Below are positions 10,501 to 28,481 of a stretch of DNA of 64,000 nucleotides, piece by piece. The first letter of the stretch is position 1. Every line of letters begins with the position of its first letter. This stretch comes from Candidatus Bathyarchaeota archaeon (GTDB lineage Archaea; Thermoproteota; Bathyarchaeia; Bathyarchaeales; Bathycorpusculaceae). The stretch is taken from the NCBI GenBank assembly GCA_026014685.1, contig JAOZHW010000003.1, positions 35,995 through 99,994 of the forward strand. Reading direction: 5' to 3'. Below the pieces are notes generated by a model that worked only from the letters and a program-made list of their open reading frames with translations, ran no database searches and had not been told where the DNA came from. The position numbers were made by a program, and so were the translations under genes.

Positions 10501-10743
10501 TTAGTGGTTGTGTTTGCATCCGCAGCCGCAACTGTGGTCGGTTGGTTCGTCGCCTTCGTGGTGGTGATGGTGCTTGTGGTGCTGGTCCTCTGAGACTTCT
10601 GCGCCTAAGTAGAGTTCAGGTTCTTCTTCGAAGGCTTTCTTGCAGCCTAACGCACAAAAATAGTAGGTTTTGCCTTTGTAGACTGTCTTGAACTTTGCTG
10701 TCCGCTCATCTACATCCATGTTACAAACTAAATCTTTCGCCAT
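10501..10743 (-). CDS. YHS/TRASH domain metal chaperone with His/Cys-rich tail
   Basis: KDLVCNMDV...YKGKTYYFCALGCKKAF; tail HHKHHHHH...CGCGCKHNH; directly downstream of copA. Confidence 0.85.
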   Translation of the reverse strand: MAKDLVCNMDVDERTAKFKTVYKGKTYYFCALGCKKAFEEEPELYLGAEVSEDQHHKHHHHHEGDEPTDHSCGCGCKHNH

Positions 10744-19948: not shown

Positions 19949-19981
19949 ATGACGCATGTCATTAAATATGACGCGTGTCAA
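19949..19981. promoter_or_regulatory. Two tandem palindromic operators TGAC-N4-GTCA next to a TATA box
   Basis: ATGACGCATGTCAT (19949-19962) and ATGACGCGTGTCAA (19968-19981) adjacent to TTATTTAA, between divergent regulator genes. Confidence 0.7.
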
Positions 19982-20064
19982 GACGGGTTAGCAGTTGTAT
20001 TAAACACCTAAGCACACCATACCTCCACTTCCTCCCGCCTGACACCGCCAAGGAGACCAAACAA

Positions 20065-21009
20065 ATGGGTAACGTCCTCCAATCTTCCCCCGACAGCCAC
20101 AAAAAAGACCTCGCCACTATGCTAAAAACACTCGACGCTGAATGCCGCAACTGTGCACCCACCTCACCACTCGAATGCATCAACCGCTGCCAAGCCTATA
20201 AACTCAAAAATGAACTTCGCAAACTCAACCAAACAATGGAGAACCCAAACTACCTAAAAGAACTCTTCAACGTACTTAAAAACGAAACTCGGCTCCACAT
20301 ATTAAAAGCCATAGCAGACGGCAAATACTCCGTCAGCCAGCTTCAGCAGGAACTCAAAAAAACTGGCCGCACCCACAGCCAAGAAACCATAAACGAAGAG
20401 TACCTTCAACCTCTTCTGGCAGTGGGCTTAGCTAACGAATCATGCGACGAATACTACGCCACACACTTCGGCGGCCGCCTAACAGAAGTCCTCGGTGTTT
20501 TTCCTGAATTCGCTGAAGTTTTGCCTGCGCGTTCGGAGTGCCATGAAGAAACCCTGCTCAGATCGCTTTTGGCTGGCCCAAAAACCTTTGAAGAAATAGA
20601 AACCGTAATTTCCCCCAAAGTTGCATCACGCATCCTGAAACGTTTACGTGAAGTCGGGTTAATAGAAACACCCGAAGACCGAGATTACATATTCTTTTTC
20701 CGCTCCAAACGTGACCCTTCACTTGAGACTTTGTCAGAAACAGAACGAAAAGTCTACGACAGCATCCCAAATGAGGGCATATCCGCAGGTAAACTGTCCA
20801 GAGAAACTCAGCTATCCACACGTAGAATCTACAAGTACCTCAGAGGCTTAAAGGGGAAAAAACTGGTTTTCGTAAGAAAAACCCCCAAAGCATACGGCTT
20901 AACCTGCAAAGGCGAAACCTTAGCTTCAGTTCTTGAAGGTATGCATGAAATAGTTGAGGAAACGTGGAATTCTTCCCAAAAAGTCTTCCACGCCGCCGAA
21001 AACTCTTAA
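20065..21009 (+). CDS. Multi-winged-helix protein with N-terminal 4-Cys motif
   Basis: CRNC...CINRC, then repeated wHTH-like units (ETRLHILKAI, TFEEIE...ASRILKRL, ERKVYDSI...IYKYLRGL..K.LV). Confidence 0.7.
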   Translation: MGNVLQSSPDSHKKDLATMLKTLDAECRNCAPTSPLECINRCQAYKLKNELRKLNQTMENPNYLKELFNVLKNETRLHILKAIADGKYSVSQLQQELKKTGRTHSQETINEEYLQPLLAVGLANESCDEYYATHFGGRLTEVLGVFPEFAEVLPARSECHEETLLRSLLAGPKTFEEIETVISPKVASRILKRLREVGLIETPEDRDYIFFFRSKRDPSLETLSETERKVYDSIPNEGISAGKLSRETQLSTRRIYKYLRGLKGKKLVFVRKTPKAYGLTCKGETLASVLEGMHEIVEETWNSSQKVFHAAENS

Positions 21010-21026: not shown

Positions 21027-21509
21027 TTAGCCGCCGCCCGGTGCGCCATGGAATGGTACATTCTCCCAGAGCATCTTCCACCAGTCGTCTTCGGTTATGG
21101 TTTCGCCTTTAACGATGATTTCAAGGGTCATCTTGAGCATGGCGTGGTGGCGGATTTCGTCTTCGAGGATGGCTTTTAGGAGGAAAACGACTTTTTTGTT
21201 TTCGATTTCGGGGATTTTTTCTTTGAGTACTTTGATGAGTTTGGCTTCTATGTCGATGTGTTTTTGGATGAGTTCCCGCTGCGTGTCTAGGTCACCTTGG
21301 GTTAAAGCTGTCGATGCACTTGTCAGTAGAGTAATCGCTGAAGTGTAAAGCTCAGCGTGCTTAACCGAATCCAGAGATACCCCTTTTAGAACGCCTTTAA
21401 CCGCGGGGTTCTTCATATCCACGATAGCTTTCTCTAGTGATTCTACGATTTCTTTTTCTACGTTAACTTGATTTTTCAAGAAATCAAGAAGCTCTTTTTT
21501 TGGTTCCAC
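21027..21509 (-). CDS. Ferritin-like (di-iron carboxylate) protein
   Basis: Duplicated helix pairs with E...DSVKH and E...DEIRH motifs. Confidence 0.8.
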   Translation of the reverse strand: MEPKKELLDFLKNQVNVEKEIVESLEKAIVDMKNPAVKGVLKGVSLDSVKHAELYTSAITLLTSASTALTQGDLDTQRELIQKHIDIEAKLIKVLKEKIPEIENKKVVFLLKAILEDEIRHHAMLKMTLEIIVKGETITEDDWWKMLWENVPFHGAPGGG

Positions 21510-21533: not shown

Positions 21534-21977
21534 TTAAGCGGTGTTCATCAAGGTTTCGGAAATCTTTTTGCCAAGCTCTCTGCAGGCGTCGAGTGCTGTT
21601 TGGTCAGGAATGTATTTGGCAAGTACCGTCGGTTCGACGATTTGCATTTCAAACTCTTGTTTCATAATGTCAAGAACAATCTTTGGCGCTTCCCCACTCC
21701 AACCATAGGAGCCAAACGCCGCAGCAAGTTTACCTTTGAGATTCAAGTTTTGGGCTGAGGCTTCTTCGAAGAGGTTCTTGAAGTCGATTGGTATTTCTTT
21801 TCTGTAAGTCGGCGCTCCCAAAGCTATCGCGTCATAATTGGTTAATTCTTGTGCGTCCACGTGGTAGTTGACATCCACTTCGACACCATTTACGCTCTGG
21901 GCGCCTTCAGCCACAGCTTTCGCCATCTTTTCAGTGTTCCCACTGCGACTATAATACAAAACAAGTAATTTCTTCAT
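21534..21977 (-). CDS. Flavodoxin
   Basis: YYSRSGNTEKMA FMN loop, GAPTY, AFGSYGWSGEA. Confidence 0.92.
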   Translation of the reverse strand: MKKLLVLYYSRSGNTEKMAKAVAEGAQSVNGVEVDVNYHVDAQELTNYDAIALGAPTYRKEIPIDFKNLFEEASAQNLNLKGKLAAAFGSYGWSGEAPKIVLDIMKQEFEMQIVEPTVLAKYIPDQTALDACRELGKKISETLMNTA

Positions 21978-22058: not shown

Positions 22059-22313
22059 TCAAGCGGCTTTCCTACCCGCAAGCTTCCTTTTTGCTCTACT
22101 ATTTTTCTTTGCTCTATTGCTTCTGCTTTCACCACCTTTTCTGCCGATCTCCTGATAAAACTTGGAACCACGCTGCTCAGCCACAGTTTCGCCACCTTTC
22201 TTGCCGATGGCGCGGTAAAATTCTGGGCCTCTCTCGCTGGCAACTTTTCTTCCGCCGATTCTTCCAGCTTCTTGTCGGGTCATTTTTCTTTTTTGCTCAG
22301 TTTTCATCGCCAA
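22059..22313 (-). CDS. KGG/GsiB-like stress protein (array gene 6)
   Basis: MTRQEAGRIGG, EFYRAIGKKGG, FYQEIGRKGG; GGAGGTGA Shine-Dalgarno. Confidence 0.88.
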   Translation of the reverse strand: MAMKTEQKRKMTRQEAGRIGGRKVASERGPEFYRAIGKKGGETVAEQRGSKFYQEIGRKGGESRSNRAKKNSRAKRKLAGRKAA

Positions 22314-22367
22314 AAATTATTCACCTCCAAAGATTCAGGTCTGAAATTACTTTAACCAATTATACGT

Positions 22368-22384
22368 CTTAAGGGTATGTGGCT
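22368..22384 (-). promoter_or_regulatory. KGG-cluster promoter motif, copy 1
   Basis: Coding strand AGCCACATACCCTTAAG, about 55 nt upstream of the 22313 start. Confidence 0.55.
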
Positions 22385-22409
22385 TTCATGGGGCAACCAC
22401 AAAACAGGT

Positions 22410-22691
22410 TTATTGAATTTTGCCGATTTCTTTAGTTATATCGATGGGTGAGTTGTAGGTTTTTTCTGGCAATCTGTTGATGACGTTCATGACATCGTCG
22501 GGTGCATCCTTGGTTTGGGCGTTGTTAACTAACTTCTCTTTTTCTGCAGGGTAATGCATACCCTTTAGGTACTTCTCCACGATGGCGGGGCTTACATGTC
22601 CTGCTTTGCCGCTTCGGTCAGTGTATTGGCGTCTTGTGCCTCTGCCCTGCCCGATTCCTCTACGCCGTGTAGTGATTGTTTGTTCACTCGT
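22410..22691 (-). CDS. DUF2795-family protein, apparently starting at ACG (absent from ORF track)
   Basis: VSPAIVEKYLKGMHYPAEKEKLVNNAQTKDAPDDVMNVINRLPEKTYNSPIDITKEIG; GGAGGTGG then 6 nt then ACG-AGT-GAA, preceded by an in-frame TAA. Confidence 0.8.
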   Translation of the reverse strand, partial: TSEQTITTRRRGIGQGRGTRRQYTDRSGKAGHVSPAIVEKYLKGMHYPAEKEKLVNNAQTKDAPDDVMNVINRLPEKTYNSPIDITKEIGKIQ

Positions 22692-22755
22692 GATTTACCA
22701 CCTCCAAAAATGTTCAAATAAAATCTCAAAGTAACATGTTAATTTGAATGCTAAC

Positions 22756-22926
22756 TTATCTTTCTTCGAATTCTCTTCCTTGCTCAATGAGTCTTCTTAC
22801 TTTTTGTCCCCCTTTATGACCGATTTCACTGTAGAATTCTTCACCATGGGTTCTAGCGGTTTTTTCTCCACCCATTCGACCTGCTTCTTGTACAGTCATC
22901 TTTCCCTTCCTTCGATTTTCAGACAA
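22756..22926 (-). CDS. KGG/GsiB-like stress protein, 56 aa (array gene 5, absent from ORF track)
   Basis: LSENRRKGKMTVQEAGRMGGEKTARTHGEEFYSEIGHKGGQKVRRLIEQGREFEER; GGAGGTGA then TTG. Confidence 0.9.
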   Translation of the reverse strand: MSENRRKGKMTVQEAGRMGGEKTARTHGEEFYSEIGHKGGQKVRRLIEQGREFEER

Positions 22927-22951
22927 ACAAACTCACCTCCACAAACATCAA

Positions 22952-23131
22952 TCATCTATCTTCTTGCTCTTTTCCTTCCTTGATTAGCCGTTGAACCCTC
23001 AGTCCACCCTTATGCCCAATTTCTTCATAGAACTCCCTGCCATGCGTCTCCGCGGTCCTTCGACCTCCCTTGTGCCCTCCTAATCGCCCTGCTTCCGCCA
23101 CCGTCATAGTTCCCTTCCTTTTTTGAGCCAA
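22952..23131 (-). CDS. KGG/GsiB-like stress protein (array gene 4)
   Basis: MTVAEAGRLGG...THGREFYEEIGHKGG; GGAGGTGA-5nt-TTG. Confidence 0.9.
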   Translation of the reverse strand: MAQKRKGTMTVAEAGRLGGHKGGRRTAETHGREFYEEIGHKGGLRVQRLIKEGKEQEDR

Positions 23132-23194
23132 CAATTTCACCTCCACTAAAACAAGTCACCCACAAAGGGTTCCCTGAACTGGTTTGACCTCTAC

Positions 23195-23446
23195 TTATCC
23201 TTCTTCGTACTGTTTGCCTTCTTGGATTAGTCGGCGGACTCTTTGTCCTCCTCTGTGTCCTGCTTCTTCTAGGCTGGTTTTGCCTCTTGCTTCAGGTGTA
23301 CCCTCATGCTGTTTGGCCCGTTCGGAGCCGCCTTTGCTGCCGATTTCACTGTAGAATTCAGGGCCGTGAGTTTGAGCCGTTTTTTCACCACCTAAACGAC
23401 CTGCTTCTTCTACAGTCATTTTTCCTTTTCTTCTGTCTGCGCTCAA
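23195..23446 (-). CDS. KGG/GsiB-like stress protein (array gene 3)
   Basis: MTVEEAGRLGG..THGPEFYSEIGSKGG..EEAGHRGG; GGAGGTGA-5nt-TTG. Confidence 0.9.
   Translation of the reverse strand: MSADRRKGKMTVEEAGRLGGEKTAQTHGPEFYSEIGSKGGSERAKQHEGTPEARGKTSLEEAGHRGGQRVRRLIQEGKQYEEG
23241..23366. repeat. 126-bp perfect direct repeat, copy A
   Basis: Base-for-base identical to 23914-24039. Confidence 0.95.
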
Positions 23447-23511
23447 ACATTTCACCTCCAAAAAAGTCGTACGGTAGCTTTCTACTCAATGACCTAGCTT
23501 AGAACAAGCTT

Positions 23512-23528
23512 CTTAAACGTATGTGGCT
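23512..23528 (-). promoter_or_regulatory. KGG-cluster promoter motif, copy 2
   Basis: Coding strand AGCCACATACGTTTAAG, about 66 nt upstream of the 23446 start. Confidence 0.55.
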
Positions 23529-23618
23529 GTCCATAAACAGCAACAGCCAACAATACAAGCTAGCCTTAGAGATACACCTACATTACAAAAAAATAACCGA
23601 TTTTTAGATTGCTTTAGT

Positions 23619-23807
23619 TTATTCTTTTTCGCGGGCTTTACCCTGCTCCACAAGTTTGCGGACACGTTGCCCTCCTTTTGGTCCGCCAATCCTTCCGCCT
23701 TTACGTCCAATTTCACTGTAGAATTCTTCGCCATGCGTCTGCGCGGTTTTTAGTCCTCCGCGGCGTCCAGCCTCTTCAACAGTCATTTTTCCACGTTTTT
23801 CCTCCAA
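23619..23807 (-). CDS. KGG/GsiB-like stress protein (array gene 2)
   Basis: MTVEEAGRRGG..THGEEFYSEIGRKGG; GGAGGTGA-5nt-TTG. Confidence 0.9.
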   Translation of the reverse strand: MEEKRGKMTVEEAGRRGGLKTAQTHGEEFYSEIGRKGGRIGGPKGGQRVRKLVEQGKAREKE

Positions 23808-23864
23808 AAATGTCACCTCCCCTAAACTATCGACCTAAAAACAGAGCCTTCAAAACAGGGCTGC

Positions 23865-24188
23865 TTATTCTCTTCCTTCCCGTTCCTTCCCCGCTTGAAT
23901 CAGTCGGCGAACCCTTTGTCCTCCTCTGTGTCCTGCTTCTTCTAGGCTGGTTTTGCCTCTTGCTTCAGGTGTACCCTCATGCTGTTTGGCCCGTTCGGAG
24001 CCGCCTTTGCTGCCGATTTCACTGTAGAATTCAGGGCCGCGTTCTGCTGAGACTTTTTCGCCGCCTTTGCGTCCGATTTCTTCGTAGAATTCGCGTCCGT
24101 GTGTGGCTGCGGTTTTTTGTCCGCCTTTCCTTCCTGCTTCGGCAACGGTCATTTTGCCCTTTCTGGTTTCTTCTGTTCGTGTACTCAA
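23865..24188 (-). CDS. KGG/GsiB-like stress protein (array gene 1)
   Basis: Four (K/R)GG units; GGAGGTGA-5nt-TTG. Confidence 0.9.
   Translation of the reverse strand: MSTRTEETRKGKMTVAEAGRKGGQKTAATHGREFYEEIGRKGGEKVSAERGPEFYSEIGSKGGSERAKQHEGTPEARGKTSLEEAGHRGGQRVRRLIQAGKEREGRE
23914..24039. repeat. 126-bp perfect direct repeat, copy B
   Basis: Identical to 23241-23366. Confidence 0.95.
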
Positions 24189-24247
24189 AAAATTCACCTC
24201 CTACTAAACGATGGAAAAGCTAACAAGATATTTGCCGAATAACCGCT

Positions 24248-24264
24248 CATAAAGATATGTTGTT
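24248..24264 (-). promoter_or_regulatory. KGG-cluster promoter motif, degenerate copy 3
   Basis: Coding strand AACAACATATCTTTATG, about 60 nt upstream of the 24188 start. Confidence 0.45.
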
Positions 24265-24438
24265 GTCGCATGGCAGTAACATACCAAGCTAGCCATAGAA
24301 ACACACTTGTAGACTTGTGCTGTTGGCGTGCTTTTTTCTTCTACTTCTCCTATACAGCCAAAAAACAACAGAGAAAACCGTCTGTTTCAGCAATTTAAAT
24401 ATCGGGCAGGGTTGAACTACTATGTTGCTGAGTGCACC

Positions 24439-25923
24439 ATGAAGGTTCTCCTCGTCAACCCGCCGCAGACATTCTACCCCGGCTCAGACCCACCCGCAGG
24501 CAACCTGCCCTTGGGTTTAATGTACATAGCTGCGGTGCTCCAGAAAAACGGTTACGCAGTGGAGATTTTGGATACGTTTATGGCAGGTGCGGAGTTTGAG
24601 GAAAAAAACGGCGAATCAGTAACCATCGGGTTCCCCCTTAAGCGAATTGAAGAGGAAATCCGAAGCAGAAACCCTGACATAGTGGGCATCGCGGGGCCCT
24701 TCACCAGTCAAATCGGCCACGCCATCGCCGTCAGCAAAGCCGCCAAAGACGCCAACCCAAACATCCTAACCGTGGTCGGCGGACCCCACGTCACCTTGGT
24801 TCCCAAAGAGTTCCTCGAAGAAGCCCAATCAGTGGACATTGCTGTAGCAGGCGAAGGCGAATATGGCATGCTGGAAATCGCCCAACACTTCGAAGGCAAA
24901 AAACCGCTCAGCGAAATCAAAGGAATCGCGTACCGCCAAAACGGCACCGTCGCCGTCAACGAACGACGACCCTTCATCGAAGACCTCGACGAATTGCCAT
25001 ACCCCGCCTACGACTTGGTAGACATGGAGCAGTATCTTGGACCAAGCAAGATTGGCTACCGCAGTTTTCAAAAACGAGCCATCTCGATGATTACCAGTAG
25101 GGGGTGTCCGTTTAACTGCTGTTTCTGCTCGGTGCACCTGCATATGGGTAAGGGGTTCCGTGCACACAGCGCCAAATACGTCCTCGACCACATCCAACAC
25201 GTCGTAGACAAGTACAAGGTCAAAAACATCTTCTTCGAAGACGACAACCTAACCCTTGATTTGAAACGCTTCGAAGCCATCTGCGACGGCATAATCACGC
25301 GGAAAATCAGAATCGGCTGGGAAACCCCCAACGGCGTCCGAGCCGACCGCCTCACCTTGGAGTTGCTTAGGAAGATGAAGCAGTCAGGCTGCAAAAGCGT
25401 GTTCGTCGGCGTGGAATCGGGCGACCAGCAAATCCTCGACAAAGTGGTCTGCAAAAGCCTCGACCTCAACCGCGTGGTCGAATTCGCCAAGAACGCCAAA
25501 GAAGTCGGCTTAAAAACAGGCGCCTTCTACATCATCGGGTTCCCGGGAGAAACAAAGCAGAATATGCAGCGCACCGTCGATTTTGCCCTTGAAATGAAGC
25601 GTAAATACGATGTGGGTATGCACTTGTTTGCGGCGACCCCATCTTATGGCACACGGCTCTATGAGGAGTGTAAGGCTAAAGGGTATATCGCTGCGGATTT
25701 GTCGTGGAACAGTTTTGCACAAGCCCGCCAAGCAAGAGGGCTCCCTTTGATTACCACAGATGAGTTTACGCCTGCAGAAGTCAAAGAGATCGCTGCTAAA
25801 GCGTTGGCAGAATACAAAAAAATACACCTGATCAATCTGGCGAAGCACCCCACTAAGGCACTTAAGACAGCGTTCGATCAGCCACAGCTGATCTGGAAAT
25901 ACCTCAAAAACTTACCGCCATAA
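24439..25923 (+). CDS. B12-binding radical SAM protein
   Basis: MKVLLVNPP, PLGL.YIAAVL, VGGPH, GEGE, TSRGCPFNCCFC, VGVESG, IIGFPGET. Confidence 0.93.
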   Translation: MKVLLVNPPQTFYPGSDPPAGNLPLGLMYIAAVLQKNGYAVEILDTFMAGAEFEEKNGESVTIGFPLKRIEEEIRSRNPDIVGIAGPFTSQIGHAIAVSKAAKDANPNILTVVGGPHVTLVPKEFLEEAQSVDIAVAGEGEYGMLEIAQHFEGKKPLSEIKGIAYRQNGTVAVNERRPFIEDLDELPYPAYDLVDMEQYLGPSKIGYRSFQKRAISMITSRGCPFNCCFCSVHLHMGKGFRAHSAKYVLDHIQHVVDKYKVKNIFFEDDNLTLDLKRFEAICDGIITRKIRIGWETPNGVRADRLTLELLRKMKQSGCKSVFVGVESGDQQILDKVVCKSLDLNRVVEFAKNAKEVGLKTGAFYIIGFPGETKQNMQRTVDFALEMKRKYDVGMHLFAATPSYGTRLYEECKAKGYIAADLSWNSFAQARQARGLPLITTDEFTPAEVKEIAAKALAEYKKIHLINLAKHPTKALKTAFDQPQLIWKYLKNLPP

Positions 25924-27764: not shown

Positions 27765-28481
27765 CTATGTGTTTGTGAACCATAACATATCCGCTAAAAG
27801 GTCATTGTAAATACATTGATCGCCCATCATAGTGTTACAGCCAACGGCGGCGTACTTATACGTAGTTGATGTATAACCGACATAGTGATATGCCCACGAA
27901 TTGATCAGTTGTGTATAACCGATAGGTTCCCAACTCCAGTCTAAACCGCTGTTACTACCCCAGACTATGATGTAGTTACCTGTATGTCCGGGTCCTGTAG
28001 GCCCAAGTTTGCCATAGACGTAGACTTGCCCAAATGAATAGTCATAGCTTAGTCGCCCCGCTATACCTGCCCCTTGATTAAGACCAGTCGTTAAAAACCT
28101 TGTATAGTCATAGTTGATGGAACCGCCAAGAATACCGTTAGGGTTAATCACCTGGCCACCGTACAAGGGTTCTATTTTAGTCAGGTACGTCAAATAGCTT
28201 GGATTAACCGTTAAAGCAGAGGGCTGGAATTTCAAAACAGCGCCATTTGTGTCCGCAATCATTTTTTCCCTTAGCTCGATTTGCTTTATCCATAAACCTC
28301 GAATTTCAGCTAATTTAGCGTCAGTTGCATTAGGATACATCAAAGCAATTGATCCTTCGATAAAATCTGGCAAAACTTTTTCGCTCTTTATGGTTGCCGC
28401 TTCTACAGCAGTTAAGCTACTAGCCAATAGTGCTGCTGAAAGAATGACTACGAGGACAAGCTTAACTTTTTGCATTCTCAA
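27765..28481 (-). CDS. Secreted hypothetical protein
   Basis: Signal peptide ending AVEA, GGAGGTGA Shine-Dalgarno, aromatic/Gly-rich beta C-terminal half. Confidence 0.7.
   Translation of the reverse strand: MRMQKVKLVLVVILSAALLASSLTAVEAATIKSEKVLPDFIEGSIALMYPNATDAKLAEIRGLWIKQIELREKMIADTNGAVLKFQPSALTVNPSYLTYLTKIEPLYGGQVINPNGILGGSINYDYTRFLTTGLNQGAGIAGRLSYDYSFGQVYVYGKLGPTGPGHTGNYIIVWGSNSGLDWSWEPIGYTQLINSWAYHYVGYTSTTYKYAAVGCNTMMGDQCIYNDLLADMLWFTNT

Follow-up and report, generated by a model that had tools for sequence, protein, structure and literature searches.

Why should a cluster of small archaeal genes combine an exceptionally strong Shine-Dalgarno (SD) sequence with a weak start codon, and what might such a design be for? 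The question is raised by a locus in a 64-kb stretch of DNA (hereafter, the window) covering positions 35,995-99,994 of the forward strand of contig JAOZHW010000003.1, from assembly GCA_026014685.1 of Candidatus Bathyarchaeota archaeon, which belongs to the Bathycorpusculaceae within the Bathyarchaeales. The Bathyarchaeia are among the most abundant archaea of soils, peat and sediments, and hardly any have been cultivated. On the minus strand of the window, positions 22059-24188 coincide with an array bounded by the TTG of its first gene and the stop codon of its last, and hold six paralogous genes for KGG (GsiB/Em-like) proteins together with one gene for a DUF2795 protein, all in the same orientation. 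In the order in which they are read, these are g7 (23865-24188; 107 amino acids, aa), g6 (23619-23807; 62 aa), g5 (23195-23446; 83 aa), g4 (22952-23131; 59 aa), g3 (22756-22926; 56 aa), the DUF2795 gene (22410-22691; 93 aa if the ACG at 22691-22689 is its start) and g1 (22059-22313; 84 aa); each of the six KGG genes starts at TTG. The evidence presented here inclines, if not strongly, towards an ancient and vertically inherited stress island of the Bathyarchaeales, the hydrophilins of which would be made from SD-stabilized mRNAs with rate-limited initiation.

Pfam assigns the DUF2795 protein to PF11387 with 59.1 bits (gathering score, 25 bits), the match covering positions 2-53 of the 54 in the profile. 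The gathering score of the KGG family (PF10685; 20.4 bits) is passed by five of the six small proteins, viz. g7 (55.4 bits), g3 (37.3 bits), g1 (36.3 bits), g5 (28.8 bits) and g6 (20.8 bits); g4 scores below it, at 17.2 bits, and is judged a clear KGG paralogue by its alignment with g7, to which it is 73% identical. Alignment of the six reveals a common layout, with an N-terminal (K)MTVxEAGRxGG followed by one to three THGxEFYxEIGxKGG units, and in five of them a C-terminal GGQRVRRLIxxGK tail. Both the array of six genes with DUF2795 and these two repeat units had been described in a first-pass annotation made from the letters of the DNA, and both stand. That annotation had further likened the proteins to GsiB, to enterobacterial YciG/YmdF and to plant Em proteins. 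The first likeness is upheld by the Pfam matches and by the identities with Firmicutes proteins given below; the others hold less well. Scores against LEA_5 (PF00477; gathering score, 40 bits) all fall short, at 31.9 bits for g1, 25.1 for g7 and 18.9 for g4, even though PF00477 is precomputed on most g1 orthologues. By this curated threshold, the window proteins resemble late embryogenesis abundant (LEA) group 1/Em proteins without being members of the family. No NCBIfam model matches any of the seven array proteins.

The closest known counterpart is GsiB of Bacillus subtilis, which is encoded by one gene with an ATG start and contains five tandem repeats. Like the array proteins, GsiB has KMxxEEAGRKGG followed by (H/R)xxEFYxEIGxKGG units, and its sequence aligns with them at 42-56% identity. 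A further likeness is the unusually strong SD, which in gsiB is known to stabilize the mRNA. In contrast to GsiB, the array consists of six short genes of one to three units each, starts them at TTG, encodes basic rather than acidic proteins with the additional C-terminal GGQRVRRLIxxGK tail, and has an archaeal promoter. Plant Em/LEA group 1 proteins are likewise hydrophilic and glycine-rich, with a repeat ending in GxKGG, but they belong to another domain of life with its own regulation, and the array proteins remain under the LEA_5 threshold. YciG and YmdF of Escherichia coli share the KGG Pfam family with the array; the likeness of YciG, however, is confined to AGRKGG (E = 0.004), and it has no EFYxEIG unit. 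Group 1 LEA-like proteins have been reported earlier from archaea, among which M. paludicola has five (Campos et al., 2013, discussed in PMC12904285). The archaeal LEA-1/KGG-like hydrophilins of Methanocella and others are of the same family as the array proteins, and hence the family itself was already known in archaea.

The feature that sets the array apart is found in front of its genes. Each KGG gene is preceded by GGAGGTGA, a spacer of 5-7 nt and an in-frame TTG. On the minus strand, these SD sequences occupy 24194-24201 (g7), 23813-23820 (g6), 23452-23459 (g5), 23137-23144 (g4), 22933-22940 (g3) and 22321-22328 (g1); the DUF2795 gene has GGAGGTGG at 22698-22705. We take GGAGGTGA to be complementary to the 3' end of 16S rRNA over 8 nt, on the basis of what is known of archaeal 16S rRNA in general; the window contains no rRNA. 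As GGAGGTGA occurs only 8 times in the 64 kb, six of these at KGG genes, its pairing with TTG is beyond chance. In other genes of the window the SD match extends over 3-6 nt, and most of these genes start at ATG. Two further genes of the window, both on the minus strand, are also preceded by GGAGGTGA. The first (10501-10743) encodes an 80-aa YHS-domain protein, begins with ATG and lies just downstream of an 809-aa open reading frame (ORF); the second (27765-28481) encodes a 238-aa protein of no assigned family with a hydrophobic, signal-peptide-like N-terminus, and starts at TTG or at an ATG two codons on.

The persistence of this signature was followed among relatives. A species-level scan (one genome per species) matched 450 relatives, and all locus comparisons concern the best 80 of these 450, nearly all of which carry the label Bathyarchaeia or Bathyarchaeota (Ca. 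Bathycorpusculum and "Bathy-6" genomes among them); their habitats include peat, soil, sediment and termite gut. Together with the window, the 80 loci provided 841 kb of Bathyarchaeia sequence, in which 346 of the 363 copies of GGAGGTGA are located at KGG or DUF2795 genes, and only 3 of the 17 copies outside the array precede an ORF. Viewed from the genes, GGAGGTGA is present at 283 of 331 KGG genes, and TTG is the first in-frame start (scored 5-13 nt past GGAGG) in 254 of the 331. The preference varies with the orthologue group, being almost absolute for g7 (82/83) and less so for g4 (19/24), g6 (58/76), g3 (32/47), g5 (33/53) and g1 (28/46). The codons between the TTG and Met13 vary at their third positions (0.32) about twice as much as at their first (0.15) and second (0.14), which indicates that this region is translated. 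A GTG inside GGAGGTGA was considered as a leaderless or general start and was rejected: the spacing brings it into frame in only some half of the genes, and a stop codon or another frame intervenes in g3, in g1 and in most DUF2795 genes. As its frame relative to the ORF shifts with the length of the spacer, it cannot serve as the general start. The coupling of strong SD and TTG at all six KGG genes, noticed in the first pass, is kept across the 80 genomes. The same annotation had raised the possibility of a shared translational control; as a shared trait, the combination of strong SD and weak start does extend through the 80 genomes and to the DUF2795 gene (with ACG), and this common design suggests a common control of translation or of mRNA stability.

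Evidence on the RNA comes from assembled metatranscriptome contigs of related soil species, the exact organism having been found in no RNA run. The KGG coding regions are matched at 85-99% identity by contigs that number, in some runs, more than 200, and word depth on g7 reaches approximately 1900. RNA of close relatives is thus abundant in soil metatranscriptomes, which removes the objection, foreseen in the first pass, that the genes might not be expressed. Over the 5' region of g7, for which 8 runs were used, depth is uniform as far as 24200-24206 and then drops to approximately zero in the promoter, the DNA of which is conserved to the same degree. From the contig ends, the predominant RNA 5' end of g7 orthologues maps to 24201-24206 (minus strand), and Illumina adapter is joined to contigs at 24201, 24203 and 24204. 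Further contigs end at 24193 and approximately 24212, and a few of low depth reach further upstream. Hence, in several runs, contigs end 0-5 nt upstream of the 8-nt SD of g7 (the predominant RNA, 2-5 nt upstream), an arrangement that corresponds to the strong SD near the RNA 5' end of the gsiB type. Either transcription starts at this point, driven by the AT-rich stretch some 26 nt further up, or the end is a processed one guarded by a bound ribosome. From the TTTATGA box, a transcription start would be expected near 24224. At g5 and g6, divergence among the soil species beyond the repeat core is too great for mapping of RNA ends. An RNA thermometer or other SD-sequestering leader was rejected, since the g7 leader is unstructured, its predicted folding being no stronger than that of shuffled controls (z = +0.98).

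These observations can be accommodated by a mechanism modelled on gsiB. The 30S subunit would dock very tightly on an SD at, or a few nucleotides from, the 5' end of the mRNA and, while docked, would shield the message from decay, an effect for which B. subtilis gsiB provides experimental evidence. Owing to the weak start codon, productive initiation would then be the slow step, and it might hinge on the fidelity of initiation factors. The outcome would be long-lived mRNAs and sustained synthesis of protectants in slow-growing or stressed cells, with protein output metered; the KGG proteins themselves would most likely act as LEA-like molecular shields. The stability of gsiB mRNA depends on its strong ribosome-binding site (PMC7509114, section 11; Jurgen et al., 1998, as cited in that paper and in PMC3997798), and a strong SD near the 5' end can stabilize an mRNA even without translation or a start codon (PMC7509114). 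The leader stabilizers of gsiB, aprE and ermC resemble the array in having a very strong SD near the RNA 5' end, which the g7 RNA ends abut, but they are bacterial and act against RNase J or RNase E; moreover, the stabilizer here would be the translational SD of every cistron itself.

Weak or non-canonical starts take part in control elsewhere, as with the AUU of bacterial infC and the near-cognate ACG and CUG starts of eukaryotes, ACG being one base removed from AUG. The array shares with these a conserved sub-optimal codon where AUG would be possible; unlike infC, it displays no evident autoregulatory logic, its products not being initiation factors. A bolder proposal, which is offered as tentative, is that of a translational code for a dormancy or stress regulon in the Bathyarchaeales, composed of a 5'-terminal 8-nt SD and deliberately weak starts, including a true ACG in more than 50 species. 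Bound 30S subunits would then store and protect the messages, the translation of which might be set by the condition of the initiation machinery (e.g., the stringency of aIF1) and not by transcription alone. In the literature searched, there was no description of a Bathyarchaeia array with DUF2795, of its shared promoter, of a near-exclusive SD plus TTG or of an SD-adjacent RNA 5' end. The locus represents a concrete, conserved and apparently highly transcribed candidate for a persistence module, and it provides a comparative case for two points rarely documented in archaea: the selection of weak starts behind an extreme SD, and probable initiation at ACG. The start-codon findings would also improve the annotation of Bathyarchaeia genomes.

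Several observations weigh against an SD-stabilized, rate-limited stress island. ATG is the chief alternative to TTG, in 15 of 53 g5 and 10 of 47 g3 orthologues, and it replaces ACG in a few DUF2795 genes, so that a weak start is favored and not obligatory. The six SD-TTG units stem from one duplicated unit and are not independent within a single genome. The data on RNA ends derive from assembled contigs of related species other than this organism, and the SD-adjacent end could simply mark where transcription of an mRNA with a short leader begins. The protective role is extrapolated from relatives that are distant, and the 4-6 copies retained by termite-gut species are no specific pointer to desiccation. 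On a rival reading, the array comprises ordinary, highly expressed genes, with the SD serving to maximize translation, the TTG copied by duplication and weakly kept, and neither special regulation nor mRNA stabilization. In favor of such a view are the clear derivation of the paralogues from one ancestral unit, SD included, the presence of ATG in those 10-15 g3 and g5 orthologues without gene loss, and the high metatranscriptome depth. Nevertheless, TTG persists in all but one of the g7 orthologues despite approximately 24-32% third-position variation nearby and despite a DUF2795 block in which synonymous differences approach saturation (pS 0.69). An independent instance of the design is the unrelated DUF2795 gene, the codon of which is weaker still and has an invariant third base; maximal output, in turn, would predict ATG, as in the other genes of the window. 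We thus regard ordinary high expression as an unlikely explanation of the array, and the reading of a stress island with stabilized, slowly initiated messages is retained.

The nature of the protectants is indicated by composition and by predicted structure. The KGG proteins contain 14-21% Gly, have a grand average of hydropathy (GRAVY) of -1.30 to -1.49 and lack Cys and Trp; with the DUF2795 protein, the values are 8.6% Gly and a GRAVY of -1.00. By the criteria applied (Gly above 6% and high hydrophilicity), all have the composition of hydrophilins. The AlphaFold2 (AF2) model of g7 consists of long, low-confidence helices without a fold (predicted local distance difference test, pLDDT, 64; predicted template modelling score, pTM, 0.24), which fits an LEA-like disordered protein. 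In that of the DUF2795 protein, a small four-helix domain lies behind an N-terminus that is disordered and rich in Arg and Gly (pLDDT 74). Searches of the PDB by sequence and by fold, with DUF2795 and KGG proteins, returned nothing significant.

An alternative function, namely that the proteins bind nucleic acids and shield chromatin or RNA in the manner of the alpha/beta-type small acid-soluble spore proteins (SASPs), instead of acting as general LEA-like shields, finds some encouragement in their charge. All seven proteins are basic (pI 9.1-11.4), g1 (pI 11.4) ends in a very basic Lys/Arg tail and the DUF2795 protein carries RRRGIGQGRGTRR at its N-terminus. The GGQRVRRLIxxGK tail, moreover, gives a marginal match to SASP PF00269 (gathering score, 22 bits) amounting to 22.1 bits for g5 as a whole protein, but no single stretch passes alone; g7 and g3 score 17.7 and 17.5 bits, respectively. 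The best fold matches of DUF2795 are winged-helix DNA binders, but these are non-significant, with Foldseek E-values all at least 1.2, and the PDB sequence search was without a match. The core repeats, furthermore, are of the GsiB/Em type, and the usual view of GsiB/Em proteins is one of chaperone-like protection, not DNA binding. Nucleic-acid binding is therefore held to be rather improbable, though a live alternative in view of the charge and the SASP-like tail, and LEA-like shielding remains the preferred function. The segment responsible for the marginal match is the C-terminal EEAGHRGGQRVRRLIQxGK, at residues 52-79 of g5 and 75-101 of g7 (23195-23290 and 23865-23966), and one metagenome homologue (P0081) carries a precomputed PF00269.

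With the DUF2795 gene, the start codon is probably ACG. In the window, a TAA directly behind GGAGGTGG opens its frame, and no ATG, GTG or TTG stands between the SD and the conserved coding sequence; the first canonical start is a GTG inside the Pfam domain, and it is from this internal GTG, within PF11387, that an automated ORF listing begins the gene. The orthologues have the consensus GGAGGTGA-N6-ACG-AGT, and 50 of the 52 carry ACG where, by its distance from the SD, a start codon is expected; the other 2 have ATG at that position. The codon preceding the ACG is unconstrained, 20 different codons being found there. ACG is the rarest Thr codon of the window (9%), and three conserved internal Thr positions of DUF2795 use it in 1/44, 10/50 and 0/46 cases. 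A canonical start before the conserved HVSPA motif is absent in 41 of the 52 orthologues, and the 25 codons upstream of this motif have a pN/pS of 0.18 (at the near-saturated pS already cited), from which the segment ahead of the internal GTG is concluded to be under purifying selection. Metagenome homologues with a canonical start often begin "MS.Q", placing their ATG exactly at the ACG of the others. The features expected of an ACG start on comparative grounds are therefore all present, viz. its distance from the SD, its invariance, freedom upstream, constraint downstream and ATG in relatives; it is the want of a canonical start, the invariant ACG at SD distance and the ATG of a few relatives that together make ACG the probable start.

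Initiation elsewhere, whether at an internal GTG or Met, at a GTG within the SD, or through frameshifting or reinitiation, could be argued from the gene callers, which give canonical starts (VKTTS, LEVE and MEVK N-termini, from GTG, TTG or ATG) to many homologues. These database starts, as in P0121, P0124, P0125, P0135, P0139, P0141 and others, lie inside or just ahead of the SD, and their frame is not conserved; many orthologues, moreover, have the TGA of GGAGGTGA in frame a short way upstream. Such starts look like a gene-caller artefact. The window also has a GTG in the +1 frame 10 nt past the SD, the ORF of which was considered upstream of DUF2795 and rejected, as it is missing from other species. 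Given also that the internal GTG lies within the Pfam domain behind 25 codons under purifying selection, and that ACG and ATG alternate at one position, a start other than ACG appears quite improbable. If the ACG is true, DUF2795 orthologues are systematically mis-annotated by current gene callers. No description of a conserved ACG start in archaea was found in the literature searched.

The age of the array is indicated by its conservation. The 80 loci contain 1-8 KGG genes each, in the recurring order g7-g6-g5-(g4)-g3-DUF2795-g1. The order of the window occurs in 13 loci (the window included), g4 alone is missing from 11, only g7-g6 remain in 12 and only g7 in 7; orthologues of g7 were found in the 80 loci, and there were 76 orthologues of g6, 47 of g3, 46 of g1 and 24 of g4. 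The g7 orthologues are 62-95% identical (median 91%), compared to 67-80% for neighbouring enzymes. The G+C content of the array (45.8%) equals that of its flanks. From the common order, the common neighbours and this G+C content, the array is read as old and vertically inherited; judged on such comparisons, it predates the radiation of these species and has descended vertically within the lineage, with lineage-specific losses and gains. The labels of the best 80 genome matches bear out the archaeal, and specifically Bathyarchaeia, source. The suggestion of the first-pass annotation that the array was an expanded kit, probably of bacterial origin, is weakened by the same facts, and the vertical inheritance across TACK archaea that it had named as the contrary case is found for the Bathyarchaeia, the group in which it was shown. 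Recent horizontal import from bacteria, for which one might cite the chiefly bacterial distribution of the KGG family, its Firmicutes plasmid homologues ("general stress proteins" mostly 36-56% identical to g7, one 60.7%, over 49-89% of its length) and a close homologue on a virus-like contig as a sign that the genes can move, is very unlikely, since the G+C content matches the flanks, order and neighbours are kept in up to 74 of the 80 genomes, the orthologues are 62-95% identical to one another and at most 61% to bacterial matches, and the conserved promoter is archaeal-looking (BRE/TATA-like, i.e., resembling a transcription factor B recognition element and TATA box); on the best 80 of the 450 relatives, such import finds no support. 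An ancient transfer is conceivable.

Two contigs with the array at 89-92% identity bear labels from other lineages: JBLNCY010000053.1 ("Methanocella sp."), where its neighbours are the winged helix-turn-helix (wHTH), ferritin-like and flavodoxin genes described below, and DATIXS010000186.1 ("Ca. Acidoferrum sp."), where its neighbour is the radical SAM gene (locus handles L011 and L064, respectively). Judged by these sequences, both are probably mis-binned Bathyarchaeia contigs. Within the array, a 172-nt stretch in the 3' halves of g5 and g7 (23195-23366 and 23868-24039) is 91% identical, far closer than in other paralogues, which suggests gene conversion or a recent partial duplication. Termite-gut metagenome-assembled genomes (MAGs) have the 4-6 KGG copies already mentioned and several soil MAGs have 1-2; as habitat is known from sparse record titles only, no pattern is claimed.

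Conservation extends to the promoter. The approximately 110 nt upstream of g7 (24189-24300) are almost invariant in the 80 species, more so than the neighbouring proteins, and contain in order a GCATGTTACTGCyATGC inverted repeat, the core ACAACAACATAnnTTTATGA, GAGCGGTTATTCGGC, a short AT-rich stretch and the SD. The BRE/TATA-like core, ACAnCnACATAnnTTTAdGA, is nearly invariant across the 80 species at 24247-24266 (minus strand), with copies on the same strand before g5 (23511-23530) and before g1 (22367-22386); the window has 4 matches, against 0.16 expected, 3 of them within the array. Just upstream of the first core, at 24268-24284 (minus strand), the inverted repeat (GyATG-N7-CATGC) is a candidate regulator-binding site, kept in most of the 80 loci and the only such site in the window. 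From the cores, together with spacer lengths and T-runs, three transcription units are suggested, namely g7-g6, g5-g4-g3-DUF2795 and g1.

The neighbours are equally persistent. The region upstream of g7 is shared with a divergent gene for a B12-binding radical S-adenosylmethionine (SAM) protein (24436-25923, plus strand; syntenic in 74 loci). Downstream lie genes for a flavodoxin (21534-21977, minus strand; 61 loci), assigned by its Pfam match and without a record in an exact-sequence database look-up, and for a 160-aa ferritin-like candidate (21027-21509, minus strand; 71 loci), the matches of which to Ferritin_2, Rubrerythrin, DUF892 and bacterioferritin (bfr) are all sub-threshold. In E. 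coli, yciG of the yciGFE cluster adjoins two genes for ferritin-like DUF892 proteins (yciF and yciE), and the presence of a ferritin-like candidate beside the array suggests that KGG and ferritin-like genes are a recurrent pairing. Further along, a multi-wHTH gene of ArsR/TrmB-like type (19975-21009, plus strand; 59 loci) may be considered a candidate regulator of the array.

Viruses appear to carry array genes rarely, a scan of IMG/VR having returned 3 weak matches only. The virus-like sequence referred to above is a 65-kb contig (ENA contig_53344; locus handle L001) with many small ORFs, PCNA, thymidylate synthase and DUF5131. At L001:6001-6531, it encodes a 176-aa protein, 86% identical to g7, in which two KGG proteins, one g6-like and one g7-like, are fused head to tail; this fusion gene is without the GGAGGTGA/TTG signature and starts at ATG.

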